Made by a program: the position numbers and the translations under genes
Shown here: positions 4,300-51,283 of the stretch, piece by piece
Numbering within the stretch: the stretch's first letter is position 1
Layout of the letters: each line of letters begins with the position of its first letter
Assembly: GCA_030600585.1 (NCBI GenBank)
Contig: JAUVLU010000004.1
Span: forward strand, 19,016-83,015
Source of the DNA: Candidatus Cloacimonadota bacterium
Lineage (GTDB): Bacteria > Cloacimonadota > Cloacimonadia > Cloacimonadales > TCS61
Direction: 5' to 3'
DNA: 64,000 nucleotides
The notes under the pieces: model-generated
Databases searched by the model: none
Told to the model about the DNA's origin: nothing
Seen by the model: only the letters and a program-made list of their open reading frames with translations

Positions 4300-4422
4300 A
4301 TCCTCACCTTATTTTTTAAATGAAAGTTGAAGGGAGAGCATTTTCTGTCAACAGGAAAAATTGATAGACAGATTCTTTGTTACTGCATTATTTGATACAT
4401 AGAAAGTCAACCGGAGGAAATT

Positions 4423-4872
4423 TTGAACAGAATCATCTTGGTATCATTGCTAATATCAATATTTTTTGGATGCAGTTCAAATGCGCAATTTAAAACTAAA
4501 GGAACTTCAAAAAATCATCTGCATCAGAGATTCGGGAAGTCGGAAGTTTATGAAACAAAGGTCAAAAATGGTGACGAATTTTATTTTGTATGTTCATATT
4601 ATGGAAAAAAATTCCATGGACGTCAAACTGCAAACGGTGAAATTTTTGACATGAATAAACTGACCTGTGCTCATAAAACACTTCCTTTCAACACAAAATT
4701 AGAAGTTACAAATGAAGATAGTGGGAAATCTGTGATTGTGCGTGTGAATGATCGCGGACCTTTTATAAAAGGAAGAGATCTGGACTTGTCACGTGCAGCT
4801 GCAAACGAAATCGGATTGATACCATACGGCGTTAAAAAATTGAAAATAAGAATTTTAGAAGATAATGAATAA
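4423..4872 (+). CDS. rlpA: septal ring lytic transglycosylase RlpA-family lipoprotein (DPBB domain)
   Basis: TTG start and a lipobox-like signal (LLISIFFGCSS). SYYGKKFHGRQTANGEIFDMNKLTCAHKTLPFNTKLEVTN...VIVRVNDRGPF is the RlpA double-psi beta-barrel signature. Confidence 0.8.
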   Translation: MNRIILVSLLISIFFGCSSNAQFKTKGTSKNHLHQRFGKSEVYETKVKNGDEFYFVCSYYGKKFHGRQTANGEIFDMNKLTCAHKTLPFNTKLEVTNEDSGKSVIVRVNDRGPFIKGRDLDLSRAAANEIGLIPYGVKKLKIRILEDNE

Positions 4873-6835: not shown

Positions 6836-9800
6836 ATGAGAAAGATCGATCTTGTTTTTATTATTATGATTATTACAGCTTCCCTTTTTTCGGTGATCGA
6901 AGAAACCGAATCATTAAAAAACTTTCTGTATGCAGAAGCTTCCAACTGTGAATATGATAATTGGATGAGTCATGTTACTGAGGGAATTGCCGATCCCGGC
7001 TATAATCTTTATGCTCCATGGGATGTGCAGTCCGAAGGTTTTGGAGATTATGTGATTCCAACAGAGGACGATCTTTTGACATGGGGATTGATTATTGATG
7101 AATTCCTGCTTGGTAACCTGGATGAAGCACAAAGCATGATCGATGCAACTTCTTATCCCTACGAAATTGTGATTTTTAATGATACCGATACCGATCGTAC
7201 TTTTTATATGCTGCGTGAAATTCCCAATGATTCACATTATGATGATAACCAGACCGAAGATCCGGGTGATGATGAATTCGGCGCATTTGATTACGGCTGG
7301 GGATTGTATATTTATTATCCCGAAGGAGAATATCCGCACATTATTACAGCACCGCATCCTAATGATGATTATATTACAGTTCCCATAGCTTATAAAACAT
7401 TTATAGATATTAACTCAAAATTTTTACTTATCTCAGGTTGCGGAAGAGAAGTTGTATGGACGAATTCCGGCTCTTATTCTAACAGCAAATCGCTTTGTGA
7501 TCCTTCCAGGAAAGAAGAACATGTTTTTAATGTTAGCTATCAAAAATTCTGTGATCTTATCCGGGATGAATTTAACCGACATGAGTTCAGCTTGCAGATA
7601 CATAGTTACGATTGGGGGAGCAGGCATTGGGGATATCCAAATGTGCAGATCTCAGCCGGTTATTATATCGGATCACCAGATCTTCCAATAAGAGATCATT
7701 CATCAATGGGAAATGATATAGTTAATGTCTCTGATCCTGTTGTTCATCCGGCAAATTCTGTTGGATTACACGCTCCAGTATATTTGAATGATTTTTATGG
7801 TTTCCATTGCAGTGAATATGATTTTAATTTTTCAAATAGTGATACGACTTTTGCTGTTAATACGGATATAGATCTCTGGGGATACAGCACAAATCGTCAG
7901 ATCGTTTATACAAATTCCGGTTTAAGTAATTATGATAATATCGAAAGATTTCTGCATCTCGAAATGGATGAACTTCCCAATATTTACGCGCAAACAGTAA
8001 ATAATTATCATTGGTTTCATGGGTGGGATCCGGCAACTCAAACCTGGGATATGGAACACAGATTTGATTATTCTTTCGCATATTATTCTTCATGGATAGA
8101 TGCCTTAGCAGAGGCTCTCCCCGCAGTTTATGAAATGAATGATAATGAAATTCCGGTTGCCCCGAGTGAGCTTCAGGTTGTAACGGAATGCGCAGATCAT
8201 ATTGAAATTCAATGGACTTCCGGAGACTGCTTTGATATGGATACTTATAAAATTCTCTATTCTACTCAGCCAATATCAAGTGGCGGATATTCCATAAAGG
8301 ACAAAGATAATTTCGGGAAACTCGCATGTTTGGCACAAGATAGTTATACTTTAGGCGGGTTATATCCTGGAGCAGGATACTATTTTGCAATTTGCATTCA
8401 GGATAAGAATGGTAACGAATCTGAATTATCCAACGAAGTATTTGGAACAACCGGTCCTGCCGCAATTGATGATTTTATAAGTTATGGAAGAGATGAATAT
8501 ATCAATTTGGAATGGGAAGCTTCTGCTGCCGGCGCATATTCCGGGTTCAATATTTATAGGAAAACATCTGAAAGTGATTTTATTTTGTTGGATTCATGGA
8601 TTGTGAATCCTGAACTTGTAGGGTTTCAAGGTGAAAATGTTCCATATTTCTATATTGATTCTAATGTTGAAAACGGACAAATTTATACTTATAAACTGGG
8701 GTTTGAAGATAATGATATTGAATATCTTTTCGGTGAAATATCTTCTGCTGTCTCACAAGAAATATTTGAAATATATGCTTCTCAAACAACCGGAACCTTA
8801 AGTGATACTTGCTATTTTGGATATAATGAATTTGCTTCCGACGGTTATGATACTAATTTTGAAATTGAAGCTGATGATTCAACTGCCGGAGAATATTTTT
8901 TCTGCCAGTTCTATGAACAATACTGGAGCAGTAGTGTTCCTGAAAATTATGAACAGGAGATCTACGGAGCTTACAATACCGAAGAACAACTCAAAAGCTG
9001 GATCTATCGAGTGCGCACAAATTATTTGAATACACCGATTGAAATAGGAATTGCAAATCCGGAGAGAAATGCCGAAAGATCCTACCTTTATGTAAATGGG
9101 CAATATACCGACCTCTCAACTACCACATATACATTCACTCCAACCACTTCAAATTATTACAGTTTCACTCTCTATTATGGGAACTTAACACCTTCACTTG
9201 AATTTGATGATGTTCCAAACCAACTGCTTTATCCAAACGAAATCCTTGATATAAGTTGGTCGGTGAATATGAATTCTACTATCGATCATATAAATGTTTA
9301 TGCAGAAAATGATGAGATTACAATTCCGATTGAGTTGGAATTATTACCAACTACTTCTAACGTTGAATGGATTATCCCACAACTACTATTTGAAGACCTT
9401 AATTGCAGGATAGATCTAATTATGGATGAAGGCGATACATTGCATTATTATTCACCTTACAGTTTTGGGATAATCTCTCCGCAAAATATCGTGGAAACTT
9501 ATCAGGGTTGGGATCTGATGACTAAGAATTTTGATACAGATCAATATTCAACAGAGGAGATATTCGGTGAGAATGTTGAATTTTATGAATTTATAAATAA
9601 TGAATTTAACATGGTCGATGAACCGGTATTTCTGCATCCTTACTGGAATTATGCACCGCAAAACAATTATTTTACTTTGGATAATGCAACAATGCAGAAG
9701 ACGGCGTACGGAACACAACTGAACTTAGGATGGAATATTATTCCAAATCCGCATAAGGCACATTATGATCTTGATCAGTTAGTGTTTTCTGTTAATAATG

Positions 9801-10738
9801 TCGATTACGAATATTATCAGGCAGTTCAGAACAGGTTGATAGAACCGGCTGTATTTGATTATGATAATTGCTTTGATCCGGTTTATGAGCTTACTCCGGC
9901 GAATGCATATTATTTATATTGTTATGAAGATGATATTATTGTGAAATTTATTCCGTATTACTCAAATGAGTTTTCACCTGAGTATGAAATTAATTGGAAA
10001 GCAAAGATCAATGTGGAACAGGAAAACAGTGATCTGTCATCTGTAATTGTTGGAACCTCCAATTTTGCAGATTCGCTCTATAATGCAAATTACGATCTTC
10101 TTAAGCCAATAAATAAACCATTCGAGAGTATTATCACGTTCAGTATTCTAATGGAGATTGACGGGGTAATACGACCTAAGAAGCTGCATCAATCTATTAC
10201 ATCATCACAAGATGAAACACAAGAGTTTACATATTCTTGGAATGCAGAATTACAACTCGTTGATCTGCAACCATTATTTTTTGATGCTGAAAATTATGAG
10301 CTTCCTGAAAATTCCAGCATATATCTTGAAATGCCGGAAGGTTATTTGGAAATATTTGAAAATGAAATTGTGGAATACACTCCGGCTGACACACTTTTGG
10401 AGATCACAATTCTTATAACGGATCAAGAATACAGCGATGCGGATGATGAGGTTGTTCAAAATACATTCAAATTGCAGAACTATCCAAATCCATTTAATCC
10501 CGAAACAAATATACATTACAACATTCCAGAAGAAGGAAAAGTTGAATTGAGCATTTATAATATTAAGGGTCAAAAAGTTAAAACATTGGTAAATGAGACT
10601 CAACTAAGTGGGGAACACACTGTAGTTTGGAACGGAACAAATAAACAAAATAAACGTGTGGCATCGGGTGTTTACTTTTATAAATTAGAAATTAATGATT
10701 CCAAATTACTGATCAATAAAATGTTGTTGTTGAAATGA
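6836..10738 (+). CDS. large secreted protein with FN3-like domains and T9SS C-terminal sorting domain
   Basis: The ORF track starts at 6812. I prefer ATG 6836 (GGAG 7 nt upstream, signal-like MRKIDLVFIIMIITASLFS). The C-terminus LQNYPNPFNPETNIHYNIPEEGKVELSIYNIKGQKVKTLV...VVWNGTN...ASGVYFYKL is the type-A/FlgD-Ig-like T9SS sorting domain. Confidence 0.8.
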   Translation: MRKIDLVFIIMIITASLFSVIEETESLKNFLYAEASNCEYDNWMSHVTEGIADPGYNLYAPWDVQSEGFGDYVIPTEDDLLTWGLIIDEFLLGNLDEAQSMIDATSYPYEIVIFNDTDTDRTFYMLREIPNDSHYDDNQTEDPGDDEFGAFDYGWGLYIYYPEGEYPHIITAPHPNDDYITVPIAYKTFIDINSKFLLISGCGREVVWTNSGSYSNSKSLCDPSRKEEHVFNVSYQKFCDLIRDEFNRHEFSLQIHSYDWGSRHWGYPNVQISAGYYIGSPDLPIRDHSSMGNDIVNVSDPVVHPANSVGLHAPVYLNDFYGFHCSEYDFNFSNSDTTFAVNTDIDLWGYSTNRQIVYTNSGLSNYDNIERFLHLEMDELPNIYAQTVNNYHWFHGWDPATQTWDMEHRFDYSFAYYSSWIDALAEALPAVYEMNDNEIPVAPSELQVVTECADHIEIQWTSGDCFDMDTYKILYSTQPISSGGYSIKDKDNFGKLACLAQDSYTLGGLYPGAGYYFAICIQDKNGNESELSNEVFGTTGPAAIDDFISYGRDEYINLEWEASAAGAYSGFNIYRKTSESDFILLDSWIVNPELVGFQGENVPYFYIDSNVENGQIYTYKLGFEDNDIEYLFGEISSAVSQEIFEIYASQTTGTLSDTCYFGYNEFASDGYDTNFEIEADDSTAGEYFFCQFYEQYWSSSVPENYEQEIYGAYNTEEQLKSWIYRVRTNYLNTPIEIGIANPERNAERSYLYVNGQYTDLSTTTYTFTPTTSNYYSFTLYYGNLTPSLEFDDVPNQLLYPNEILDISWSVNMNSTIDHINVYAENDEITIPIELELLPTTSNVEWIIPQLLFEDLNCRIDLIMDEGDTLHYYSPYSFGIISPQNIVETYQGWDLMTKNFDTDQYSTEEIFGENVEFYEFINNEFNMVDEPVFLHPYWNYAPQNNYFTLDNATMQKTAYGTQLNLGWNIIPNPHKAHYDLDQLVFSVNNVDYEYYQAVQNRLIEPAVFDYDNCFDPVYELTPANAYYLYCYEDDIIVKFIPYYSNEFSPEYEINWKAKINVEQENSDLSSVIVGTSNFADSLYNANYDLLKPINKPFESIITFSILMEIDGVIRPKKLHQSITSSQDETQEFTYSWNAELQLVDLQPLFFDAENYELPENSSIYLEMPEGYLEIFENEIVEYTPADTLLEITILITDQEYSDADDEVVQNTFKLQNYPNPFNPETNIHYNIPEEGKVELSIYNIKGQKVKTLVNETQLSGEHTVVWNGTNKQNKRVASGVYFYKLEINDSKLLINKMLLLK

Positions 10739-10868
10739 TGATACAAAACCTTGCGAATTATGCTCTTGTATCCAAGCCCCAGCTTGGATACAAATAATCA
10801 ACGTGATGAGAAGATTTCCAAGCTGGGGTCCTGGAAACCAGAAAATTAAGGGACATTTGGCACTAATG
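10724..10868 (+). repeat. 145-bp 3-prime element, copy 1 (duplicated at 13817-13961)
   Basis: Begins in the last 5 codons of the T9SS gene and runs 130 bp past the stop. Aligns without indels to 13817-13961 (offset 3093) with about 6 mismatches. Contains the hairpin gtatccaagc-ccca-gcttggatac (10768-10791). Confidence 0.85.
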
Positions 10869-10888
10869 TAAATTATTTGGAGGTTTTT

Positions 10889-13831
10889 ATGAAGAAAACA
10901 TTTACTATGTCTTTTTTATTATTCATCACTTTTGTTAATGCAACTATTATCAATGTTCCAGCAGATCAACCAACAATCCAAGAAGGTATTAATGTTGCAG
11001 TTGATGCAGACACCGTTCTTGTACAACCTGGAACTTATATAGAAAATATCAACTACAATGGAAAAAATATTACGGTTGCTTCATTATTTCTCACTACTCA
11101 AGATACTTCATATATTTCTCAAACAATAATTGATGGTAATAACAATGAGCGAATTGTTTCTTTTACAAATGGAGAAACCGAAGAAGCAAAATTGATCGGA
11201 TTAACTATTAGAAATGGTTATGGTTATTATGTCAATCAACAAGACGCATGTGGAGTTGGTATTTATATTTTAAATAGCTCTCCTTCAATAGAAAATAATA
11301 TAATTGAGGATAATGATAGTTACTGGTATGTTAATGGGTGTGGGTTAGGAATTCAAAATTCATCAGCTAAGATCAAAAACAATATTATCAGGAACAATAA
11401 TGGTGGATACTTCGGTGGTGGAATATATGTTTATCAATCCGAAAATGTTGTAATAGAAAATAATGTAATTTATGATCATCATACGATTAGTGGATATGGT
11501 GTTGATTATGGAGCGGGAATTTGTATCAATCAATCAAGTGATATTTTAATTCAAAGTAATCTTTTATATAACAATGCGGTTGGATTTTCGGGTGGTGGGA
11601 TAGCTTGTAGAGACAATAGTTCCGTATGTTTGATAAACAATACAATTACAAAAAATCATTCGGGTGGAAGCGGATCTGGCATATATTGCACATCTCAAAC
11701 CTCTGAAGTTGAAATTCTTAATACTATTATCTGGAATAATCAGCCAAATACCAGTGCACAAGTATTTGGTGAAAATATTATAGTGAATTACTGTGATATC
11801 CAAAATGGTTATTCCGGGATTGGTAATATAAACAGCAATCCTCTTTTTGAAGAACCAGCCGCTGGTAATTTTTCTTTAACTCTTCAATCTCCCTGTATCA
11901 ATTCCGGTGATCCTGAGTATGAGCTTGATCCTGATGGAACAATCGCTGATATTGGTTTTCAATATTTTGATATGAGCGAATATGGTTCGATATCGGGTAC
12001 AGTCAGCCTTTCAGGTGGATACGGAAATGTAGAAAATACAGTTATAACATGTAATGGTTTCCAAACTAATCCCAATGAAGCTGGATACTATTTTTTCCAC
12101 TTAACTCCAGGATTTCATGACCTTACTGCATCATTAGAAGATTATGAGAGCATTGAGTTTAATAATATTGAGGTTCTCCAGGGTCAAACCACTTCTAATA
12201 TTAACTTCGATTTACAATACGTCGGTTCTAATGGGATTATTAATATTGCACAAGACGGTTCAGGTGATTTCATTACTATCCAGGAAGGGATCAATGCTGC
12301 AACTGGAGGAGATACGATTCTTGTTCATCCTGGCACATATTTTGAAAACGTTAATTTTTATGAAAAAAATCTCATTCTAGGTAGTCTGTTTCTTACAACT
12401 CAAGATAGTTCGTATATTGAAATGACCATTTTAGATGGAATGGACAACAATCACACTATAATGATAGAAAATAATTCTAACAATTTAACAAGAATTTGCG
12501 GATTTAAACTTTTAAACTCAAGTCATGATTACTATTGTATATTTGGTTTCAATGTTTCACTAAATATCAATAATAATATTATTACAAATACTGTTAAATC
12601 AGGTGTAAAAATCAATTTTTCTTCAATGTTGGAAATAAAAAACAACAAATTTTTGAATAATGGCAGTAAAGGTTTAATCATCTATTATGCAAATAATACA
12701 ATTTTAGAAGACAATGTTTTTGATGATAACAGTATTGGGATTAGTTCTAATAATTCTTATGCTATAATAAAAGATAATACTTTTTCCAATAATACTTGGG
12801 GAATTTCAGGAAATAGCACAGGAACAATTATAAAAAATAATTACTTCACAAATAATTTAGATGGAGTTAGTTGTCATGGTTTTTCTCCTACTATTAACTG
12901 CAATATTTTCTTAAACAATCAGAATGGTATTTATATCTCTAGCAGTTCAAATCCGTTAGTTGTCAATAACCTGATCGTTGAGAATGAGAATGATGGAATA
13001 ATTTGCTTAGGATCAACTTCACCAATAATTGTTAATAACACGATTGTTAATAACAATGAGGGGATATCTTGCCATTATAATTCCGGTTCACCTCAAATAA
13101 TAAATTGTATAATTTTTTTTAATGATTCAAGCTTTGATAGTTATTGGGATGAAACTACTACAACGATTTCTTATTGCTGCATTGAAGACAGTTTACCAGC
13201 TAATGCCATAAATGGAGGTGGAAACATTATTATTGATCCTGATTTTGTGGCTTATGATGATTTTCAATTATCGGAAAACAGTCCATGTATAGATACTGGA
13301 ACACCAGATACTACAGGATTGAATTTACCACCTTGGGATATAATCGGTAATCATCGTATCTGGGATGGAGATGGAAACGGAATTGCTATTATTGATATGG
13401 GAGCTTATGAATATGGTGCTCCACCTTATGTAGATATAGATGACAATGTAATTATTCAAACTTCTGAAATCTCTTTACATCAGAATTATCCAAATCCATT
13501 TAATCCAACAACAACTATTTGTTTTGAAACCACGAATTTATACAAATTTGCACAAATAGAGATTTATAATATCAAAGGGCAGAGAGTTAAAACTTTGTCT
13601 GTCACCCTGAGTCCCGAATCTTCGCTCGGGAAAGGGTCAGACAATAATTATATTAATATTCCCAGTCCTTCGGCTACGCTCAGGATGACACGAGCAGGGA
13701 GTAAATATTATTCAGTCATCTGGAACGGCACTAACCAAAATAATCAACCTGTTTCATCAGGAGTTTATTTATATAAGTTGAATGTGGATGGTAAAACTGA
13801 AGAAGTTAAAAAATGTTTGTTGTTGAAATGA
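10889..13831 (+). CDS. secreted right-handed beta-helix repeat protein with T9SS C-terminal sorting domain
   Basis: The ORF track starts at TTG 10877. ATG 10889 follows GGAGG and gives the signal peptide MKKTFTMSFLLFITFVNA. Two homologous modules (IINVPADQPTIQEGINVA...GTYIENI and IINIAQDGSGDFITIQEGINAA...GTYFENV) are followed by NN-rich beta-helix repeats. The C-terminal YPNPFNPTT...IYNIKGQRVKTL...WNGTN...SGVYLYKL domain is interrupted by a repeat (see 13600-13690). Confidence 0.8.
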   Translation: MKKTFTMSFLLFITFVNATIINVPADQPTIQEGINVAVDADTVLVQPGTYIENINYNGKNITVASLFLTTQDTSYISQTIIDGNNNERIVSFTNGETEEAKLIGLTIRNGYGYYVNQQDACGVGIYILNSSPSIENNIIEDNDSYWYVNGCGLGIQNSSAKIKNNIIRNNNGGYFGGGIYVYQSENVVIENNVIYDHHTISGYGVDYGAGICINQSSDILIQSNLLYNNAVGFSGGGIACRDNSSVCLINNTITKNHSGGSGSGIYCTSQTSEVEILNTIIWNNQPNTSAQVFGENIIVNYCDIQNGYSGIGNINSNPLFEEPAAGNFSLTLQSPCINSGDPEYELDPDGTIADIGFQYFDMSEYGSISGTVSLSGGYGNVENTVITCNGFQTNPNEAGYYFFHLTPGFHDLTASLEDYESIEFNNIEVLQGQTTSNINFDLQYVGSNGIINIAQDGSGDFITIQEGINAATGGDTILVHPGTYFENVNFYEKNLILGSLFLTTQDSSYIEMTILDGMDNNHTIMIENNSNNLTRICGFKLLNSSHDYYCIFGFNVSLNINNNIITNTVKSGVKINFSSMLEIKNNKFLNNGSKGLIIYYANNTILEDNVFDDNSIGISSNNSYAIIKDNTFSNNTWGISGNSTGTIIKNNYFTNNLDGVSCHGFSPTINCNIFLNNQNGIYISSSSNPLVVNNLIVENENDGIICLGSTSPIIVNNTIVNNNEGISCHYNSGSPQIINCIIFFNDSSFDSYWDETTTTISYCCIEDSLPANAINGGGNIIIDPDFVAYDDFQLSENSPCIDTGTPDTTGLNLPPWDIIGNHRIWDGDGNGIAIIDMGAYEYGAPPYVDIDDNVIIQTSEISLHQNYPNPFNPTTTICFETTNLYKFAQIEIYNIKGQRVKTLSVTLSPESSLGKGSDNNYINIPSPSATLRMTRAGSKYYSVIWNGTNQNNQPVSSGVYLYKLNVDGKTEEVKKCLLLK
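13600..13690 (+). mobile_element. MITE-like palindromic repeat inserted in frame inside the T9SS sorting domain
   Basis: Terminal inverted repeats tgtcaccctgag (13600-13611) / ctcaggatgaca (13679-13690), of the same family as 24411-24492, 3068 and 44443. It encodes SVTLSPESSLGKGSDNNYINIPSPSATLRMTRAG, at the position where the two sister sorting domains have only about 11 residues between KTL and VWNG. Confidence 0.7.
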
Positions 13832-13961
13832 TGATACAAAACCTTGCGAATTATGCTCTTGTATCCAAGCCCCAGCTTGGATACAAATAATCAACGTGAT
13901 GAGAAGGTTTCCAAGCTGGGGTCCTGGAAACCAGAATATTAGGGGACATTTTTCACTAATG
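13817..13961 (+). repeat. 145-bp 3-prime element, copy 2
   Basis: See 10724-10868. Same hairpin at 13861-13884. Confidence 0.85.
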
Positions 13962-14007
13962 AAAATAAATTGGAAATAAAAGGAATTCTGAAACAACATG
14001 GGAAAAT

Positions 14008-14697
14008 ATGAAATATAAATTAGTATTATTCGATGCTGATGGAACGCTCTTTGATTTTGATACAGCAGAAAAGCAAGCATTTGAGAAAACATTTAAGCAA
14101 TTTGGAATCACAGAAAATCTAAAGCAATTACACAAAGAATATGAAATTATCAATATGGCTATCTGGCGTGACTTTGAGCAGAAAAAAATAACTTCCGAAA
14201 AACTACGGGTAGAGCGTTTCCGAATATTTTTTGATAAAGAAAATTTGCAGCTTGATCCCAAAGTTATCAGCCCAATCTATCTGAAATATCTTTCGGAAGG
14301 GACTCATCTTTTACCGGGGGCAAAAGAAATAGTCAGCTTCCTATTTGGAAAATGTGAACTTGCGCTTGCCACAAATGGTATTGCCGATGTTCAAAATCCC
14401 AGATTTGCAGGTTCGGATCTGGCAAAATATTTCCGGCATATATTTATTTCTGAAGAGATTGGACATCCAAAACCGGACCCCAAATTTTTTGAACATGTAT
14501 TCATGAAACTCACTCATAAAGAGTCTGCGATAATTATTGGGGATAATTTAAGTTCAGATATTAAGGGTGGAAATAATTTTGGAATTGACACATGTTGGTT
14601 CAATCCAAATAAACGTCACAATAAAAGTGGGATAGTTCCTACTTATGAAATTAGTGATCTAAGAGAGATAAAAAAAATATTAAATAAAGGAGATTGA
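14008..14697 (+). CDS. HAD-superfamily hydrolase, YjjG-like nucleotidase subfamily
   Basis: 229 aa. Motif I LFDADGTLFDFD and the C-terminal GDNLSSDIKGG motif resemble the YjjG/noncanonical pyrimidine nucleotidase group. Confidence 0.7.
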   Translation: MKYKLVLFDADGTLFDFDTAEKQAFEKTFKQFGITENLKQLHKEYEIINMAIWRDFEQKKITSEKLRVERFRIFFDKENLQLDPKVISPIYLKYLSEGTHLLPGAKEIVSFLFGKCELALATNGIADVQNPRFAGSDLAKYFRHIFISEEIGHPKPDPKFFEHVFMKLTHKESAIIIGDNLSSDIKGGNNFGIDTCWFNPNKRHNKSGIVPTYEISDLREIKKILNKGD

Positions 14698-44158: not shown

Positions 44159-44193
44159 TCAAAAAACTTGATTTAAATTTGTAAATATAACAA

Positions 44194-44226
44194 AGCCCTT
44201 CAGTGTAAACTGAGGGGCTTTTTTTG
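44194..44226 (+). terminator. Rho-independent terminator after secF
   Basis: agcccttcag-tgtaaa-ctgaggggct stem-loop followed by TTTTTTT. Confidence 0.7.
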
Positions 44227-44900
44227 TACCACGTTCACTCAGCCAAGAAAACTGGCTGAAAATCTTGAACGTGATTTGTTTTTTATCCTTCCGAAGGTTA
44301 TGTAACTTTCATTTATTCTCAACCTTCGGAAGGTTAAATTCACCTCAGTCTTCTCCGCCCCGTTCTCCGCAGTAGCCCGACACTCCATGGCGGGAAAGTG
44401 AACCTGACTCATAATAACATTAGATGCCGCAGGAAGAAAAATTGTCATCCTGAGCGGAGACGAAGGATAATTCACCGCAAAGATTTATGCGCAGTGGCGT
44501 ACGCTAAGTACGCAAAGAAAGACAACTATTGAAAAATCTGTCTTTCTGAACCCCATCCCCAACCCTTCCCCTTAAACTAATGGGAAGGGAGTAAAAAAAA
44601 CTGTCTTTCTGAGGTATCTTTTTGCCTTACCCACGAAGAATCTCTTGGAAGAATCCTCAGCTTTACTCCTCGTAAACAATCGTCTGAGATCACACTCAGC
44701 AACTAAGCCCTTGTACTATTTAACCTTTTTCTAATTGACAACAAACCACCAGCCAAATCTTATCTTGCCAAATTAAGGAGAATTAAAGGGGGTTTAGTAT
44801 CATTGCATCCTTCACCGCTTCGACTCGACGTTTCTCTTTCGAGTCGAAACTCAGAATTATTTTCTAATTGACACTTAACTATTACTTTATCAAATTCGGT
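44227..44900. repeat. about 670-bp pile-up of dispersed palindromic repeats
   Basis: Inverted copy of the 23468-23512 element (44230-44274). Perfect 13-bp inverted repeat ccttccgaaggtt/aaccttcggaagg (44287-44299 / 44321-44333). tgtcatcctgagcggagacgaaggat at 44443. Two ctgtctttctga words (44538, 44601), the second starting a copy of the 15603 MITE. Hairpins cccttccc/gggaaggg and ttcgactcga/tcgagtcgaa. 14-bp direct repeat ttttctaattgaca at 44727 and 44860. Confidence 0.75.
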
Positions 44901-44918
44901 TTTGATTTTAATAATTAA

Positions 44919-45113
44919 CTTGAAACATTAGAATTTTGGAGAGGAAACTTGAGATATATTCAAAAAATTCTTGGACATAAGAATTTAAAAACCCCGATAC
45001 ATTTTTTCAAAACTATGGGGCAGGCAACAGAAATATATACCCATATAACAGAAAAAGGACTTACTAAGATTAAAAGTCCACTTGATAACTTGAATATTGA
45101 GGATGAATTATAA
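44919..45113 (+). pseudogene. intI: 3-prime remnant (about 64 codons) of an integron-integrase-like tyrosine recombinase
   Basis: The frame opens after TAA (44916) with no start codon: LETLEFWRGNLRYIQKILGHKNLKTPIHFFKTMGQATEIYTHITEKGLTKIKSPLDNLNIEDEL*. It contains the LLGH...IYTH box with the catalytic Tyr and the IntI-type tail G..G(V/I).SPLD.L. The N-terminal roughly 250 codons are absent and replaced by repeats. Confidence 0.6.
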
Positions 45114-45189
45114 AGGTGCGTAATAACTCTGATATTGAAGTTATGACGAACCTTTTTGGTGTAACTATAGGTTAGTTATGTGCACCTTT
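45112..45189 (+). repeat. imperfect palindrome directly after the recombinase stub (attI-like candidate)
   Basis: aaaggtgc (45112-45119) pairs with gcaccttt (45182-45189). Inner ataac...gttat words are present. It is followed at 45212-45218 by GTTAGCA, a GTTRRRY-like core. Confidence 0.4.
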
Positions 45190-45256
45190 TATAAGGGCGC
45201 AGCGTACATATGTTAGCAGAAATTAGTTTATTAAACAATAAGGGAAAATAAGTAGA

Positions 45257-46042
45257 GTGGATATGAATAAAGAAATGAAATTTGATTATTTAAAAAGCAA
45301 AATAAAGTTAAACAGCAAAATAATTTTGGAAAAATATAAAGTAGATATTCAAGAGATTATCGAAATATTTAATCTGCAATATGAGTATTTTGAAGAACAC
45401 TTGAGAGTAGCTTATCTTGAATGTTATTTTAATGATGATGAATTTACAAATTTATTAGCTACTGCCTTGAGAAAAAATATGTTTTCTTTTTTTTCTGCAA
45501 TTTTACAAACACAAGAGGGATTAGTTGGTTCTGCAAGGATAGTATTTAGAAATATTTTTGAATTCCTAATTATTGGTAAATATGCGGCAATATCAAAGAA
45601 TATGGAGTTTATTAATAAATGGGAAAAAGGTGAAGAGGTTTCATTAAAATACGAAGTCTTTTCAAAAATTAGAAAGCCAGATTCAGAAGAAATAAAAAAA
45701 CTTTGGAAGACTCTTTGTTCTTTTACACACAGCACTATTTATGCACAACAAGTTGATTTTGATGCAACAAAATATTTCAATGACATTAAATTTAACTTGG
45801 TTTTACTTAAAGTATTTTTAGAAATGAATTTTCACCTTATGAATTCATATTACATAAACAAATCACTTCAATATTATACACAAGTTTCTGATATTTATCC
45901 AGTAAATGAATTTAATGAAATACCTGTAAAAGAAAAAAAGAAATTATTAAAGTTATTGTTCACTAAAACAAAATTAAAGATGGAAAGAGACCCACGTAAA
46001 GTTATTTATGATTATAAGCTCAAATGGGAGATAAAAAAATAG
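45257..46042 (+). CDS. hypothetical all-helical protein (cassette 1, gene A)
   Basis: 261 aa, GTG start (ATG 45263 is an alternative). No firm family. The GSARIVFRNIFEFLIIGKY...LCSFTHS segment vaguely recalls DUF5677/AbiV-type helical domains (speculative). Confidence 0.65.
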   Translation: MDMNKEMKFDYLKSKIKLNSKIILEKYKVDIQEIIEIFNLQYEYFEEHLRVAYLECYFNDDEFTNLLATALRKNMFSFFSAILQTQEGLVGSARIVFRNIFEFLIIGKYAAISKNMEFINKWEKGEEVSLKYEVFSKIRKPDSEEIKKLWKTLCSFTHSTIYAQQVDFDATKYFNDIKFNLVLLKVFLEMNFHLMNSYYINKSLQYYTQVSDIYPVNEFNEIPVKEKKKLLKLLFTKTKLKMERDPRKVIYDYKLKWEIKK

Positions 46043-46149
46043 AATAAACCTAAAATCTATTTCATTTTTTTTATAACGTTTAGCAAGGAGTTGAACTATG
46101 AACAAGCTATTAAGAATCGTGAATTTTCTGAATTTCGTAGGAGATTAAA

Positions 46150-46755
46150 ATGAAATCAAAAAAAACAGTTAATCAAGATGATTTTGAAATAATAATAAAT
46201 AAAGCAATTAATCTATTAAAAAATGGAGAAAAGCGATTAAGCACATCAATATTCACATCAAAAATGAAATATTTAAAAGATTTTACTCCTAATATATCAG
46301 ATACTTTGTCATCTGACTATGGTATAAGTTCCACTAACAAAACTATTGAAACAGACTTCTTTGAAGAAGTAAACTTAATCGAAAAGCTTTTACAAGAATT
46401 AGGATTCCCAGTAAAACTTGCTGATTGGCAAAAAAGTTCAGATGATGAAAGGATGGAGAACATTTATAAAAAGATGAATCGACGTTCTTACGCAATGCAA
46501 ATTTGGAGTTTTTATGCAATTCCTTGGAGATTTAGTAATGATTGTGTTCACCTAATATGGGATCCTGAAGATGTTATGGGAACACCAATAATTAAAACAT
46601 TTGAATTAGAATATTTCATATCTACAGTATCAAATAACTTTGAAACTCAATATAATCAATATAAGAAAAATCAAAAGCAATTGAAATTTTGGATTAAATA
46701 TGGAGTTATCTTAACTGTCGTTGTACTCTTTTTTTTCTACTCTTGGTTCTTATGA
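46150..46755 (+). CDS. hypothetical protein with C-terminal transmembrane anchor (cassette 1, gene B)
   Basis: 201 aa with AGGAG 6 nt upstream. The last 20 residues are hydrophobic (YGVILTVVVLFFFYSWFL). No family recognised. Confidence 0.65.
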   Translation: MKSKKTVNQDDFEIIINKAINLLKNGEKRLSTSIFTSKMKYLKDFTPNISDTLSSDYGISSTNKTIETDFFEEVNLIEKLLQELGFPVKLADWQKSSDDERMENIYKKMNRRSYAMQIWSFYAIPWRFSNDCVHLIWDPEDVMGTPIIKTFELEYFISTVSNNFETQYNQYKKNQKQLKFWIKYGVILTVVVLFFFYSWFL

Positions 46756-46782
46756 GTTAATAATGATGAATGTTGAAGAAAA

Positions 46783-46913
46783 TTCTGCTAACAAACGTGT
46801 CAGCGGGTTAGCTGGTCGGTGTTCTTTGGCTGAATCGTTTCGATTCAGGTTTGGTCGGTTTGTTCGGTCGTGATCGTTCCGATCCCGCCGCACACGCCAA
46901 ACATTATGTGAAA
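46783..46913 (+). repeat. attC-like structured repeat (about 130 bp)
   Basis: TGCTAAC (46786-46792), 3-4-nt spacer, cgtgtcagcggg (46796-46807), central perfect hairpin ctgaatcg-ttt-cgattcag (46830-46848), cccgccgcacacg (46884-46896, pairs with 46796-46807 leaving one extra base), spacer ccaaac, then ATTATGTG (46903-46910). Confidence 0.55.
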
Positions 46914-46920
46914 AGGAGGT

Positions 46921-47955
46921 TGTATCGAGAATTATTTAATTATAAAATATGTTAATAAATTAAGAAATAACCTTTTATTCAAAGAGTGTTTTTTTCCAAC
47001 TAATGAGTGTAACAAAATTGGAAAAGCACATTCAATCCAAAATAATAGATTTCTTATAAAACTAATACAAAATCGTGATGATAAAATTCTATCATTTAAC
47101 AACAAAGAATCATTTTGTGAAACAGGTTATACTCTTGCTGAAATTGGTAGGAAAAAAGCTTCAACTTTTACCGGATTTTGTAATTATCACGACACAATAC
47201 TTTTTACTCCAATTGAATTATATGACTATAAAACTAATAATAAGCAACAAGAGTTTCTATTTTCTTATAGATGTTTAGCTTGGTTTTATTACAATAAAAA
47301 AATGGAATCTCTTATGAATAACAAATATTATGAAATATTCAAATTGAAGGAAAAAGACCATTTACAAAATATTTTTAATATTTATCAACCATATAATGAA
47401 TTTAAAATGTCTAAAATTGCTGATTCATTTAAAACTAAATATCAGCTTGCTTCTATAACTGTAAATGAATTAACTGAATTTAAAGAAATTATGAATACAA
47501 ATTTAAAGAGTAAGAATTACGATTCAATTTCTACAAAAGTTTTAATATTCCAGAATGAAACTCCAATATGTGCGACATCAGTTATTTACTTAAAAAGAGA
47601 TTTAGAGGGAAACTTGATTAATGATTATTTAGATTTTAGCAAAAAATTAGAACCAATCTTTTTTAGTGTATTTCCTCAAGCAGGGAAAACATATGTTTTA
47701 TTAAGTTATTTCACTGAAACAAAAAATACATTTTCATTTTTATACAATCAATTTGGAAAATTGACACTAAAACATCAGAAGGTATTAATCACGAGTTTAA
47801 TATTTTCATATATTGAAAATTTTTACACTTCAAACCAATATTGGAAATCAAAGAAGCAAAATTTAAGGAATATATTAACTTCACTATTTAATGAAACTTT
47901 AGAGGAAGCAAATGAGGAACTTGAACTGAATGAAAATGTTAACTACTTTAAATAA
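46921..47955 (+). CDS. hypothetical Cys-rich protein (cassette 2); start codon unresolved
   Basis: The track ORF 47302-47955 is only the distal part. The same frame is open for 130 further codons back to TGA 46909-46911 (…ECFFPTNECNKIGKAHSIQNNRFL…ASTFTGFCNYHDTILFTPIE…) with no ATG/GTG/TTG. AAGGAGG lies at 46913-46919. Confidence 0.55.
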   Translation, partial: CIENYLIIKYVNKLRNNLLFKECFFPTNECNKIGKAHSIQNNRFLIKLIQNRDDKILSFNNKESFCETGYTLAEIGRKKASTFTGFCNYHDTILFTPIELYDYKTNNKQQEFLFSYRCLAWFYYNKKMESLMNNKYYEIFKLKEKDHLQNIFNIYQPYNEFKMSKIADSFKTKYQLASITVNELTEFKEIMNTNLKSKNYDSISTKVLIFQNETPICATSVIYLKRDLEGNLINDYLDFSKKLEPIFFSVFPQAGKTYVLLSYFTETKNTFSFLYNQFGKLTLKHQKVLITSLIFSYIENFYTSNQYWKSKKQNLRNILTSLFNETLEEANEELELNENVNYFK

Positions 47956-48020
47956 TTTTTTCACATAGCTTGTTATTTTAATCCTATCCCGCCAAACACG
48001 CAGAACATTTTTGTGAAATT
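47956..48020 (+). repeat. short attC-like repeat (left arm degenerate)
   Basis: ttttcacata (47958-47967) ... cccgccaaacacgc (47988-48001) agaac ATTTTTGTGAAA (48007-48018). The right half aligns with 46884-46913. Confidence 0.45.
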
Positions 48021-48038
48021 TATTAGTAAGGAATAGCA

Positions 48039-49079
48039 ATGTATGATGAAAATGTAGAAGAAATGTTATCAGAATTGATAAATACTTTTGGAGTAAGAGA
48101 ACCTGTTAAAAGTGATTTAATTGCTATAAATATTAAAATGGGTAGAATCGAAAAGGCAGTAAATATGATTGTTAATATATTTAACTTACCTATTAACATT
48201 AATATTATTCGAGTTTCAAGAGATTCATTAAACAATTCAAGAAATTCACCAATAAGCTTTTTGGGTTTCAACAATTTGATTGCTCAAGTCCAAATTCCAA
48301 ACGATTTACCCATATTCGGTTCATCAACGTTAAACGGTTACCCAATAAATATAAAAGTCAGTCAAATTAACAAATCAAATCCAGATATATTTATTATGAT
48401 AATGGCTCACGAAATTTCGCATATTCTGCTTTACTCGCTACGTCACCTTCAAAAAACAAATGAAATCTATACTGATATCATTGCAATCTTGTTTGGGTTT
48501 CAAAATATTTTTAAAAAAGCACGAAAAATAATAACAACTTCTTTTGAGCAAGGACTAATAAGTTCTACAACAAAAACTAACACAACTACTTACGGATATT
48601 TAACTGATGCTCAATTTAATTCGGTTCTTGATAGAATTAAATCAGAATTGATTATAAACAGGAAAAACAAATCATCTTTACATAACAAACTCAAAGAAAG
48701 TCAAAAACAAATCTGCACATATAAAAGAATGATTACAAAATTCAAAAAAGGGCTAACTATTTTGACAAAAAACTTAAAGACTAACATATCCGAATTTGAT
48801 GGAAAAAGAATTTCTGTTTTTTATCAGCCAGGATTCATTGATAATATTGAAACACCACTTCAAAATCAAAAAAAAATAGAATTGATAGCAAACTTCAAGC
48901 AAGATTTAGTTCATTATAATTCACATAATTTGGATCAGTTGAACTGTTATTTAAAATATCTATTAGAGTTAAACATTGACATAAAGAATTTAATATCTTC
49001 CGTTCACAAAGATATAAAATTAATGAGTAAAAACATTGTACTTAAAAGGAGAATCATTTTTGGATTATTTAATAAATGA
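48039..49079 (+). CDS. hypothetical HExxH zinc-metallopeptidase-like protein with coiled-coil C-terminal half (cassette 3)
   Basis: 346 aa. IMIMAHEISHILLY...NEIYTDIIAILFGF (HExxH plus a downstream Glu). The C-terminal roughly 170 aa are K/N/L-rich and helical. Confidence 0.7.
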   Translation: MYDENVEEMLSELINTFGVREPVKSDLIAINIKMGRIEKAVNMIVNIFNLPININIIRVSRDSLNNSRNSPISFLGFNNLIAQVQIPNDLPIFGSSTLNGYPINIKVSQINKSNPDIFIMIMAHEISHILLYSLRHLQKTNEIYTDIIAILFGFQNIFKKARKIITTSFEQGLISSTTKTNTTTYGYLTDAQFNSVLDRIKSELIINRKNKSSLHNKLKESQKQICTYKRMITKFKKGLTILTKNLKTNISEFDGKRISVFYQPGFIDNIETPLQNQKKIELIANFKQDLVHYNSHNLDQLNCYLKYLLELNIDIKNLISSVHKDIKLMSKNIVLKRRIIFGLFNK

Positions 49080-49092
49080 ATATTTTGAAAGA

Positions 49093-49175
49093 AAATTTCA
49101 CATAACAAACAGCTCAGTGCTAAGATTGAGAGAAGATATGAAAGAGCACCGCAGCTGCCAACCATTATACACAAG
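49093..49175 (+). repeat. attC-like structured repeat (about 83 bp)
   Basis: ACATAAC (49100-49106), spacer aaa, cagctcagtgc (49110-49120), cagctgcggtgc complement at 49146-49157 with one extra base, spacer ccaacc, then ATTATACAC (49164-49172). Confidence 0.55.
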
Positions 49176-49258
49176 AAGGAATTAAAGCTTTACAGTAATA
49201 TAAGAATACCAACATTTGACACCAGAAGCTAAAAGGAGTCTATCGTTGGAGGTGAGAC

Positions 49259-50023
49259 TTGAGGAATTATAAGGAAGAAATCATAAAAAAGATTGGAGAA
49301 TATTTCTCTACTGAACAAACATTTACTCGCAAAGAGTTGTATGATTTCCTGGAGTTAAATTTCTTCCCAAATCTAAAAGAAACAACTTTTCGTTGGCGAA
49401 TATACGAATTAAAGAAAACAAACATAATTGTTTCTGTAACAAGAGGTATATTTAAACTATCTGACAACAAAGAATTGTTTGTGCCAAGCATTAATAATAA
49501 GCTTTCTAAAATCAGCAATTTGCTACAAAAGAATTTTAACTCAATATCTTATTGTCTTTGGAGTTCAAATTGGCTTAATGACTTTTCCAGGCATCAAGCT
49601 ACAAATGAAATAGTATTTGTAGAAGTAGAAAAAGAATTAGTAAATTCTGTTTTCAATTTGTTAATAGATAATAATTTTAAAAATGTTTACATAGAGCCCG
49701 ATAAATTCGTCACGGAAACTTATGTCTCTGAAAATCAAATCTCAATTATTGTAAAATCTCTGATAACCAAATCACCAACACAACCAGTGAAAAATACTAT
49801 TGTTCCGAAATTAGAAAAAATATTGGTCGATCTATTCTCAGACAATAAATATCTCGTTGCTTACAAAGGATATGAGCAAAAGGTCATCTTCAAAAATGCG
49901 TTTGATAAATATCAGTTAAATCTTTCCAGCTTAATTAATTATAGTCGCAGAAGAAAAAAAGACAAACTTATCACGGGTTTTTTGATTACTGAAATAAATA
50001 TTGATGAGAAACTATTGAGATGA
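49259..50023 (+). CDS. abiEi: AbiEi-like antitoxin / transcriptional regulator (type IV TA)
   Basis: 254 aa, TTG start. N-terminal winged-helix-like FTRKELYDFLE...TFRWRIYELKKTNIIVSVTRGIFKL. 4-nt ATGA overlap with the AbiEii gene. Confidence 0.6.
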   Translation: MRNYKEEIIKKIGEYFSTEQTFTRKELYDFLELNFFPNLKETTFRWRIYELKKTNIIVSVTRGIFKLSDNKELFVPSINNKLSKISNLLQKNFNSISYCLWSSNWLNDFSRHQATNEIVFVEVEKELVNSVFNLLIDNNFKNVYIEPDKFVTETYVSENQISIIVKSLITKSPTQPVKNTIVPKLEKILVDLFSDNKYLVAYKGYEQKVIFKNAFDKYQLNLSSLINYSRRRKKDKLITGFLITEINIDEKLLR

Positions 50024-51090
50024 TTAAAACAAGCTCTTATAAGTCAGACTGGATAACAAAACTCAGAAACAAAAAGCGAAAGATAGATCCGATATTATGC
50101 GAGAAGATGATAAGAGCTTTAGGACTTTTGGAGCAATTAGTGATCAGCAATCTGCAATTTGTTTTTAAAGGTGGAACTTCATTGATCTTACTCGTAAAGA
50201 AACCGCAAAGGTTCTCGATCGATATTGATATTAATACGGAAGATTCAAAAGAAAAATTATTAAACATTCTTGAAACAATATGTTCAAATGATTTATTTAA
50301 GCGATTTGAAGAAAATAAAAGAACGAACAGAGGTATCCCAAAAGCTCATTTTAAATTTTATTATGATTCTGTTATAAACGGACGAGAAAATTATATTTTG
50401 CTCGATGTGCTTTTTGACAAACATTCATATCCTATAGTAATTGAAACTCCAATTAAATCTTTCTGGATTGATACTGATGACAATATTACAAAAGTAAATA
50501 CTCCTTCGATTGATTCTATTCTCGGTGATAAACTTACTGTTTTTGCTCCAAATACAACTGGCATTAAATACGAAATCGGTAAATCTATGGAGATGATGAA
50601 ACAGCTTTTTGATATTGGTAGATTGTTCGATCATTTTGAAGATATAGAAGTTGTAGCTACTTCTTTCAAAAATATCGCAAAGAATGAATTAGAATATAGA
50701 GAATCTGCTGATACTACTGATGATGTTTTGCAGGATATTATTGATACAAGTTTGATAGTTTCACAATTTCCTGGTGGAACTAAATCTGATTCTCCTGAAC
50801 TTATTGAGTTGATTGACGGATTAAAACGATTTAAAGCATTTCCGATAGATTTTGCATTCAGAGCAGATGATGCAATTCTTTCTGCTGCAAAAGCTGCTTA
50901 TCTAGCTGCAAATTTTTTGAATAAGGATTTCGCCATAATTGAGAAATTTTCAAATAACGTAAAATATAATGAACCCAACTTTACTGATAACTATGAACAT
51001 CTTAAAAAGTTAAAGAAAAGAAAAATTGAAGCTTATTATTATTGGTGCAAGGTATTTGACTTATTAATATTTGATAAAAGATCTAAGTAA
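50020..51090 (+). CDS. abiEii: nucleotidyltransferase AbiEii/AbiGii toxin family protein
   Basis: 356 aa. FVFKGGTSLILLVKKPQRFSIDIDI is the AbiEii (DUF1814) nucleotidyltransferase motif. Confidence 0.75.
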   Translation: MIKTSSYKSDWITKLRNKKRKIDPILCEKMIRALGLLEQLVISNLQFVFKGGTSLILLVKKPQRFSIDIDINTEDSKEKLLNILETICSNDLFKRFEENKRTNRGIPKAHFKFYYDSVINGRENYILLDVLFDKHSYPIVIETPIKSFWIDTDDNITKVNTPSIDSILGDKLTVFAPNTTGIKYEIGKSMEMMKQLFDIGRLFDHFEDIEVVATSFKNIAKNELEYRESADTTDDVLQDIIDTSLIVSQFPGGTKSDSPELIELIDGLKRFKAFPIDFAFRADDAILSAAKAAYLAANFLNKDFAIIEKFSNNVKYNEPNFTDNYEHLKKLKKRKIEAYYYWCKVFDLLIFDKRSK

Positions 51091-51283
51091 AAAATGAAAA
51101 TAGTTCTTTTAAATAAATAGTGTGGGCTTAATTTTATTTGATGGGAAACCTGGATTAATGAAAATCCTATCCATAACTTATTGTGTTGCAACGAAATCCT
51201 TATTTGATAGTTATTTGATAGAAGAATGAAAATGAGAGATTTAGAAACTAACAAAGAGAGTTTTTCATATTCTTAACTAATAT

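Follow-up and report, generated by a model that had tools for sequence, protein, structure and literature searches.

A truncated recombinase gene at the head of attC-bounded cassettes in Candidatus Tenebribacter, a probable remnant of a collapsed integron-like platform

The recombinase remnant and the cassettes behind it

The DNA examined here, referred to as the window, is a stretch of 64,000 nucleotides on contig C48 of a metagenome-assembled genome (MAG) of Candidatus Tenebribacter (Cloacimonadota; 2.58 Mb in 89 contigs, 96.8% complete). The spacer between secF and lpxA in this window contains a short open frame that corresponds to the C-terminal end of a tyrosine recombinase and is followed by three gene cassettes of the integron type (Table 1). 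This frame, which we call the stub, had been described from the sequence alone as an IntI-type integron integrase reduced to its last codons (the original prediction). Every genome used for comparison is likewise a MAG; relatives are coded G001 to G029 etc. and contigs of the Tenebribacter genome itself are coded C.

The translation of the stub is LETLEFWRGNLRYIQKILGHKNLKTPIHFFKTMGQATEIYTHITEKGLTKIKSPLDNLNIEDEL followed by the stop codon and is identical to the sequence quoted in the original prediction. The frame is directly preceded by a TAA at 44916-44918 and has no ATG, as had been noted; the sole candidate start is a TTG at 44949 that would yield 54 residues, and an exact-sequence look-up of this 54-residue frame in public assemblies returned no record. 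The best NCBIfam match of the stub was the integron integrase model TIGR02249 with 27.2 bits (E 2.3e-6, profile positions 278-315 of 315), and the resemblance to recombinases is beyond chance. A Pfam scan reported no family for the stub, which is too short for Pfam's own filters. With respect to the catalytic set R-K-H-R-H/W-Y the stub is incomplete: only the histidine of the LGH box and the tyrosine of the IYTH box are kept and four of the six residues, namely the first arginine (Arg-I), the lysine, and the histidine and arginine of the HxxR motif, are gone. When the in-frame insert PIHFFKTMGQA was left out, 39 of 44 aligned residues were identical to the C-terminus of an intact recombinase of G006, a protein of the group that is called Y2 below.

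The 11 extra codons between the LGH and IYTH boxes, already pointed out in the original prediction, are a genuine insertion, since none of the eight full-length recombinases aligned with the stub has them. They are located between ...KNLKT and TEIYTH and their 33 nt include a small palindrome, CCCCGATA...TATGGGG. The conserved tail that follows the tyrosine, G..KI.SPLD.L, is also real, and it is absent from the XerC-like and XerD-like proteins of the same genome, which end in ...HPRS. It cannot serve as a mark of IntI, because alignment showed the SPLD tail both in true integron integrases and in the non-IntI recombinases Y1 and Y2.

The attC-bounded array starts ca. 100 nt downstream of the stub on the same strand, which agrees with the orientation originally given. 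Sites were detected with a covariance model, R1, which was trained on attC sites of the same genome and is therefore genus-biased. R1 found 43 attC sites in the genome, two of which are in the window. In both window sites nnnTAAC-AMAC is followed by a stem arm, a variable loop and the second arm, and then by GCCAAMC-ATTAnnn; the stem has a fixed bulge. In an alignment of 19 attC sites of the genome 90% of the cells were paired, and the covariation was higher than in all 500 shuffles and all slid controls. The cassettes in the window are real attC-bounded cassettes. An Rfam scan of 43.5-52.5 kb gave nothing near any gathering score.

Table 1. Features of the secF-lpxA spacer (window positions)
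Feature	Position	Strand	Description
Repeat mosaic	44240..44861	.	mosaic of short dispersed repeats (hairpins resembling repetitive extragenic palindromes) upstream of the head; hairpin at 44813-44848
L module	44862..44927	+	promoter-like upstream region, conserved, with the leader of the platform operon
Stub	44919..45113	+	64-codon open frame including stop; last ca. 53 codons of a Y2-type, IntI-related tyrosine recombinase
Deletion junction	44925..44930	+	...GAAACA|TTAGAA..., near 44927|44928; leader fused to ca. codon 313 of Y2
In-frame insert	44994..45026	+	PIHFFKTMGQA, 33 nt, 11 codons
R module	45114..45212	+	attI-like site
Crossover	45212..45213	+	G|TTA, junction of platform and cassette 1
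Cassette 1	45213..46903	+	open reading frames (ORFs) 45257-46042 (261 aa) and 46150-46755 (201 aa); ends in attC1
attC1	46786..46909	+	124 nt; R1 70.2 bits, E 8.8e-14; bottom strand folds with z -5.0
Cassette 2	46904..49164	+	open frame 46912-47955 (annotatable ORF 47302-47955) and ORF 48039-49079 (346 aa); ends in attC2
attC2	49100..49170	+	71 nt; R1 59 bits, E 6.7e-11; stem covaries with attC1 stem
Cassette 3	49165..51250 (end approximate)	+	DUF6577 protein 49259-50023 and AbiEii nucleotidyltransferase toxin 50020-51090

The deletion junction and its copies

The stub had been taken for a single gene reduced in place, but it turned out to be one copy of a dispersed unit, the head, all copies of which share a deletion junction. 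The L module opens with TTCTAATTGACA (TTGACA at 44868-44873) and contains CAAATTCGGTTTTG. Among head copies conservation sets in sharply just 5' of TTCTAATTGACA and ends right after ...CATATG|TTA, the right edge of the head being the G|TTA crossover. Upstream of Y1, the first gene of the platform in relatives, lies a region homologous to the part of L 5' of the stub (TTCnAnTTGACA ... CAAWTTCGRTTTTG); the boxes of L are found there 34-150 nt before Y1 in G001, G002 and G011. The region from TTCTAATTGACA to CAAATTCGGTTTTG is kept in ca. 20 heads as well as upstream of Y1 in relatives, and L may carry a promoter that reads outward to the cassettes.

Homology to intact Y2, both in nucleotides and in protein, begins at TTAGAA, which corresponds to the HLLEQG motif. 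The deletion removes Y1 and ca. 310 codons of Y2 and leaves the 3' flank of Y2 in place. All L copies in the genome run unbroken through GAAACA|TTAGAA. The head on G006:C39 has the same junction and the same 11-codon insert, there with an in-frame TAA, and junction and insert are also present in G007. Since every L copy crosses the junction, and since junction and insert recur in G006:C39 and G007, the parsimonious history of the heads is one deletion event that was followed by copying, with later deletions giving the shorter heads. Besides its collapsed head, G006 has an intact Y1-Y2 platform. Independent recombinase truncations, of 74, 87 and 118 residues, occur in other species.

Searching the assembly with the stub gave 12 matches at the protein level. 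In five copies, one each on C48, C53 and C69 and two on C57, the frame is open over exactly 64 codons and includes the insert, which is missing from those on C80, C36 and C19. With positions 44700-45300 as query, blastn returned ca. 36 matches on 24 contigs. Copies of L (44862 to ca. 44955 or 44991) numbered ca. 30 by blastn and 20 by a strict pattern, and R (ca. 45135-45230) was present in 18 copies. Full heads, with the whole stub between L and R, occur at least five times and abridged ones more than 20 times. The variants with further deletions all retain L and the junction, and most heads are without the middle of the stub frame.

The parent genes Y1 and Y2

Intact open frames of 355-393 residues whose ends match the stub were designated Y2, and a paralogue of 278-346 residues was designated Y1. 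In every case (G001, G002, G006, G011, G020 twice, G029, and L072, GCA_008633355.1) Y1 lies before Y2 and on its strand. The pair is located just downstream of a conserved gene for a 632-residue protein in G001, G002 and G011; the orthologous place in the Tenebribacter genome, on C80, has only L, an insert-free stub and R. In G006, G020 and G029 the platform is located elsewhere. A search of the assembly for Y1, Y2 and IntI found none of them and detected XerC/XerD-like genes only, the XerD-like one on C40 (325 bits) and the XerC-like one on C83 (326 bits).

The catalytic residues R230, K255, H319, R322 and H345 of Y2 are invariant in 33 homologues and Y354 is kept in at least 90% of them. The protein has an N-terminal extension of ca. 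95 residues. Structure prediction for L030:3345-4481 gave a β-rich domain of ca. 60 residues here (residues 20-80, predicted local distance difference test score ca. 87-92), for which no Pfam match was obtained. In a fold search full-length lambda integrase chains aligned with Y2 over ca. 350 columns, and the modelled domain is possibly of the arm-binding type. In Y1 (L030:2512-3348 of G001, L034:5180-6061 of G002, L072:5959-6999) Arg-I is replaced (SAGLS/T), H-x-L-R has become S/T-I-L-K and L072 has a Phe instead of the tyrosine; the tail is kept as SPLDNLDV. Judged by these replacements, Y1 should be a catalytically dead paralogue. It looks like a DNA-binding partner, reminiscent of the recombinase-fold regulators of the MrpR/YopR type, and the precomputed Pfam assignment PF22823 (MrpR_C_cat) matches the Y1/Y2 family. 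The only NCBI labels of family members are 'site-specific integrase' and 'site-specific tyrosine recombinase/integron integrase'.

Y2-like genes also occur outside the Cloacimonadota. On L070 (Spirochaetota, GCA_034190085.1, positions 7001-14072) such a gene lacks Y1 and precedes a row of same-strand, defence-type genes that encode a DNA methyltransferase, a DEAD/ResIII helicase and an AAA ATPase. R1 detected no attC behind the Y2-like genes on this contig and on one contig of Marinimicrobia, a result of little weight for a model trained on the Tenebribacter genome.

Relationship to integron integrases

Membership of the IntI family was judged by TIGR02249, which has a curated cut-off of 265 bits, and by alignment for IntI-specific inserts, in place of the intI_Cterm model of IntegronFinder. 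The IntI-specific domain, which is inserted around the I2 helix of the catalytic domain and has the motif ALE.KYP..., was assessed on intact Y2, since the stub does not span that region. Intact Y2 proteins scored 209-217 bits, and the match fell into two stretches that skip profile positions ca. 180-245. True integron integrases exist in the same bacterial family, in G020, G021, G024 and, frameshifted, in G002; the intact ones scored 439-443 bits and that of G021 is 45% identical to IntI1. A segment of 66 residues in VchIntIA (2a3v, positions 181-246) is represented by 23 residues in Y2. The G020 and G021 integrases carry inserts of 24 and 13 residues (...ALEKKYP..., ...RRRHH...) that are absent from Y1, Y2 and Xer proteins. 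Because Y2 is without the IntI-specific domain and scores below the cut-off of TIGR02249, the parent of the stub appears not to be a canonical IntI, though it is IntI-related, and the IntI identity given in the original prediction has to be given up. An intact copy of the gene without the IntI-specific insertion had been named in that prediction as evidence against it, and such copies are what the relatives have.

The relationship to integron integrases is otherwise close. They are the nearest characterised relatives of Y2 by the top hidden Markov model, by the top sequence match in the PDB (2a3v, 146 bits) and by the top fold match (Foldseek E 6e-15), followed by archaeal XerA (5hxy, 4a8e) with 124-126 bits. 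The description of the stub as the 3' remnant of a platform recombinase thus stands with this amendment. In a small tree Y1, Y2 and IntI were placed apart from the genome's own XerC and XerD with support of 100/99. IntI formed a long-branched clade (100/100) within a grade of Y2 sequences and the core Y2 clade was separate (100/100), in a sampling too thin to give the direction.

The congener G002 has a true, frameshifted IntI as well as Y1-Y2; both platform types therefore coexist there. On contig G002:C175 (L047) the canonical IntI is spread over three frames at 55-1098 and is divergent from the cassettes at 1292-5700. This is a classical integron, and its cassettes are bounded by attC sites of the window type (3520-3641, 4591-4713 and 5570-5692). 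At L047 ca. 2195-2290 a more classical-looking inverted-repeat site was seen, by eye only.

The attI-like site and the crossover point

In G001, G002, G003 and L072 a conserved R module is found immediately behind the stop codon of Y2. Its hairpin, AGGTGCGTAATAAC...GTTATGACGAACCT, is followed by GTAACTATAGGTTAGTTATGTGCACC and by the tail GGCGCAGCGTACATATG, and several GTTA/TAAC boxes are included. The sequence that follows the crossover, TTAGCAGAA, is the reverse complement of the R'' end of attC1 over 9 nt, and cassette 2 starts with TTATGTGAAA, the reverse complement of the R'' end of attC2 over 10 nt. An attC is found downstream of 15 R tails; at eight of these, the next 9-11 nt are the reverse complement of the R'' end of the first attC. 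Between successive attC sites in the genome, complementarity of cassette start and R'' amounted to 8-10 nt in 5 of 15 pairs. Intact platforms obey the same rule, with 11 nt in L072 and 10 nt each in G001 and G002. In L072, four cassettes in a row stand behind Y1, Y2 and R, and their starts are complementary to the R'' of their own attC by 11, 18, 14 and only 4 nt. Because R adjoins the Y2 stop codon, its copies diverge after ...ATG|TTA, and cassette starts are complementary to their own attC, the logic of these sequences suggests that R is an attI-like landing site for cassettes.

The architecture of the intact platform in relatives is a promoter-like region, Y1, Y2, the attI-like site and (ORF-attC)n, all on one strand. 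The 'inverted integrase' layout that had been proposed for the window is recovered here as far as a same-strand recombinase precedes the cassettes, but it is built on the non-IntI pair Y1/Y2. The presence of intact Y1-Y2 platforms with the same attI-like site and with attC cassettes in other Cloacimonadota suggests an undescribed integron variant.

At several attC or R tails TTAAACAACATTCCGCTTCGCTCCATGT... is found directly 3' of the crossover, namely at C48:16329 (outside the window), C58:2171, C85:51499, C47:97714 and C24:6937, and also in L013 of G003 and L014 of G002. It may represent a minimal cassette or else the end of a different element for which attC or R sites are the target.

Genomic distribution of heads and attC sites

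The heads and the arrays are linked in a directional manner. For 13 of the 20 strict L boxes a same-strand attC was found within 6 kb downstream, compared to an average of 0.72, and never more than 4, when the boxes were placed at random 2000 times, whereas only one of the 20 had an attC within 6 kb upstream. The genome map shows ca. 20 mini-arrays of 1-3 attC sites, each behind a head. Among 61 related genomes, 12 had at least 10 attC sites of this type. Intact Y2 was present in 7 of these 12 and in 4 of the other 49 (Fisher p 4e-4), while true IntI was present in 2 of the 12 (p 0.17), one copy being frameshifted and the other having an internal stop. The association of attC-richness with intact Y2 is only suggestive, as the genomes are related MAGs and R1 was trained on the Tenebribacter genome.

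The secF-lpxA spacer is 230-380 nt long in the four congeners G001, G003, G006 and G009. It extends over 7.1 kb here (window 44159-51283), 4.6 kb in G007 and 2.5 kb in G008, with unrelated contents, and by this comparison seems to be an insertion hot spot in the genus.

Origin of the head and alternative explanations

We consider it probable that the stub is the dead remnant of a Y2 gene in a collapsed integron-like platform, the head of which has been multiplied in the genome. Such chromosomal platforms for gene capture would be typical of the genus. The starting point would be a platform as described above, in which Y1 was dead and Y2 catalytic. An internal deletion would have fused the leader to Y2 codon ca. 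313, producing a head of ca. 350 nt that consists of L, the 64-codon stub and R. This head and its shorter derivatives would then have been multiplied to ca. 20-30 places in the genome. The copy in the window would have entered the hypervariable secF-lpxA spacer, where three cassettes became joined at G45212|T45213. What is useful in the head is presumably its promoter, which would face outward, and its attI-like landing site; the stub would be filler that survived between them and most likely has no function itself. Any cassette reaction would require a recombinase acting in trans. Since no Y1, Y2 or IntI was found in the assembly, the arrays may now be frozen, or they may be served by a gene in the unassembled remainder.

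Several observations weigh against this explanation. In the assembly no recombinase was found that could act on the sites of the heads and, as to how the heads were multiplied, no terminal inverted repeats, target duplications or left-hand recombination junction were found. The left edge of the head, sharp as it is just before TTCTAATTGACA, sits in a mosaic of other repeats. A simple sigma-70 consensus scan does not flag the TTGACA box of L. No downstream attC was detected for 7 of the 20 heads, and no terminal attC was found for cassette 3, neither by R1 nor by complementarity to the cassette start before lpxA. Finally, all five full stubs keep an open 64-codon frame without indels, with ratios of nonsynonymous to synonymous substitution rates (dN/dS) of 0.23-1.07, and a residual coding role is conceivable.

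The alternative that survives best, though we think it unlikely, is that the head is a non-autonomous derivative of a mobile element with Y1/Y2 as transposase, similar to a miniature inverted-repeat transposable element (MITE), and that its link to cassettes reflects a target preference for attC sites or array borders. IS1111-attC elements and group IIC-attC introns are precedents for such a preference. The heads indeed are present in high copy number, share an internal deletion of an autonomous element and keep both ends, as is characteristic of MITE-like sequences, and G006 has an intact and a collapsed copy side by side. The contigs of many relatives break ca. 100 nt past the Y2 stop codon, as happens at repeats, and the varying location of the platform (G006, G020 and G029 against G001, G002 and G011) would also fit a mobile element. 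However, no attC or attC half adjoins the heads on the left, and an attC within 6 kb upstream was found for only 1 of the 20 L boxes. The start of the first cassette at the R crossover is complementary to its own attC, as would be predicted if cassettes enter R and not if the head enters attC. Furthermore, neither terminal repeats nor target duplications were seen, and the platform is in the same chromosomal neighbourhood in four species.

It is still less probable that the frame of 54-64 residues is kept as a small protein, for example as a free C-terminal peptide that interferes with the helix which tyrosine recombinases donate in trans from their C-terminus, and that acts as a brake on cassette recombination. 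The TTG at 44949 is preceded by a GGAGAGG box. The five full copies are 80-91% identical in nucleotides and all have exactly 64 codons without stop or indel, with a median dN/dS of ca. 0.45. The GGAG..TTG arrangement is inherited from parent codons for G-E-D-L-R, however, and the differences among the five copies are distributed over the codon positions as 66/103/120, a distribution that does not suggest purifying selection. The tyrosine box is altered in some copies (IYIH, ERYTH), the G006 copy has its in-frame TAA, and the middle of the frame is lost from most heads. The flanking noncoding modules L and R are as indel-free between copies as the stub frame.

The scenario closest to the original prediction, a canonical 'inverted' IntI that decayed in place beside its own array, we regard as very improbable. 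It is favoured by the top match to TIGR02249, the SPLD tail, the orientation of the stub towards real cassettes and the occurrence of true integron integrases in the family. Of these, intI of G021 and G024 is followed by genes on its own strand, although no attC was detected there. On the other hand the stub is closer to Y2 C-termini (26-39 of 40-44 residues identical) than to integron integrases (17-20 of 36-40), and Y2 is set apart from the latter by its lack of the IntI inserts, its score below the curated cut-off and the separate, fully supported clades. In addition, the stub is a multi-copy sequence with one shared junction.

An origin from XerC/XerD or from an integrase of a phage or integrative and conjugative element, unrelated to the cassettes, is hardly credible. 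In its favour are weak scores of the Xer models (XerC 19.8 bits, XerD 18.7 bits), but both are below that of TIGR02249, and the better fit to Xer that the original prediction had considered was not obtained. The genome's own XerD-like and XerC-like genes are separate and without the SPLD tail, the stub has only 13-19 of 30 residues in common with their products, Y1/Y2/IntI split from them in the tree, and no phage or conjugative element genes are nearby.

Comparison with known systems

Described integrons such as those of Treponema (Cury et al. 2016, PMC4889954) resemble the system found here in having a same-strand recombinase, an attI-type site and a cassette array. They also share cassettes that each end in a structured attC, a crossover at N|TTA, cassette starts that are complementary to the R'' of their own attC, and cassette genes that mostly have no assigned function, plus a toxin-antitoxin pair. 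Unlike in described integrons, the platform recombinase Y2 has no IntI-specific domain, has an extra N-terminal domain of ca. 95 residues and is always located behind a dead paralogue. The Tenebribacter genome also differs in having a collapsed platform in 20-30 copies, heading ca. 20 mini-arrays, rather than one long array. We found no such architecture described for integrons in the literature searched; the search also found nothing on integrons in Cloacimonadota/Cloacimonetes or on integron-like systems without the additional domain.

The locus in the window has two attC sites and no integron integrase nearby, and IntegronFinder-type criteria would presumably file it as a cluster of attC sites lacking integron integrases (CALIN). 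Like a CALIN it has at least two attC sites and no functional integrase within reach, and a recombinase pseudogene adjoins it. CALINs with nearby intI pseudogenes were only 15 of 279, and several origins have been discussed (Cury et al., PMC4889954). The pseudogene of the window would, unlike these, not be an intI remnant by the intI_Cterm definition, and the same head of promoter-like region, stub and attI-like site precedes many arrays with an identical deletion junction. Because this junction recurs at many arrays, independent loss of integrases does not predict the pattern.

Of the characterised recombinases, VchIntIA/IntI4 (2a3v) is the best match of Y2 in sequence and fold, and a C-terminal G....SPL tail is common to Y2 and IntI; the difference lies in the short segment that replaces 66 residues of the integrase. 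Archaeal XerA (5hxy, 4a8e) is similar to Y2 in size and in the missing insert, but Y2 adjoins attC cassettes. Y1 is comparable to MrpR of SPbeta (8a0a) and YopR (8bj6) in that it keeps the fold, with SAM-like and catalytic domains, while Arg-I and HxxR are lost and one genome has also lost the tyrosine. Y1 differs from these two phage repressors in being encoded directly upstream of a paralogous recombinase with a full catalytic set on a cassette platform. The presence of a dead recombinase paralogue as a fixed partner of the platform suggests a regulatory or architectural subunit.

The stub alone would be an ordinary pseudogene fragment. What it leads to is that attC arrays accompany recombinases without the hallmark IntI domain here, not canonical IntI. 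As Messier and Roy (2001) are cited in PMC4889954, the IntI-specific domain was reported to be necessary for activity. If Y2 recombines, the required role of this domain in the recognition of folded attC sites needs to be revisited, and part of the puzzle of the abundant 'integrase-less' CALINs would be explained. We tentatively propose that these platforms may form a distinct class of integrons in Cloacimonadota and perhaps in other members of the Fibrobacteres-Chlorobi-Bacteroidetes (FCB) group or Spirochaetota. This class would be defined by a Y2 without IntI domain and possibly with an arm-binding N-domain, a dead partner, an attI after the stop codon and same-strand cassettes, and its collapsed copies would have spread as non-autonomous landing pads that seed promoter-equipped mini-arrays. 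Should this be correct, standard tools would score all such arrays as CALINs.

Cassette genes and surrounding repeats

The two ORFs of cassette 1 gave no significant Pfam family, and an exact-sequence look-up of the first of them in public assemblies gave no record. In cassette 2 the frame of the 217-residue ORF is open for another 130 codons upstream, to 46912, without ATG, GTG or TTG. The resulting stop-free translation of 46912-47955, 347 residues long, had no Pfam match. The two ORFs of cassette 3 overlap at ATGA and matched PF20217 (2.3e-66) and PF08843 (6.2e-20); they are a type IV toxin-antitoxin or abortive-infection pair.

Three further assignments of sequences in and around the head were considered and rejected. 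Treating the whole head as a 'cassette' would place its left junction at ...ATAACA|TTAGATGCCGCAGG (44410-44430), but this motif belongs to a dispersed short repeat family; GCCGCAGGAAGAA, with up to 2 mismatches allowed, has 91 matches, a good many of which are coding or due to chance, and the usual form is CATAAGA(T/A)GCCGC..., not CATTA. L was also tried as an attC-like hairpin (TTCTAAT...ATTAGAA). Folding was modest for the bottom strand (z -2.4) and absent for the top strand (z -0.6), and in G001 and G002 the sequence upstream of Y1 shows no clear conservation of the palindrome. R could not be the attC of a 'stub cassette', its TAAC boxes not being complementary to the stub start.

The DNA upstream of the head contains other repeated sequences. 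A second TTCTAATTGACA box is present at 44729-44740, within a segment (44729-44770) in which ACAAAC-CACCA-GCCAAATCTTA adjoins it directly. This combination, which is also present on C84, C36 and C33, looks like an attC minus its stem-loop. Several families of short, GC-richer hairpin repeats are found in intergenic DNA throughout the genome, one example being ...CATAAGATGCCGCAGRAAGAA... Another, the hairpin CCTTCCGAAGG...CCTTCGGAAGG at 44287-44335, is also present at the same locus in G009.

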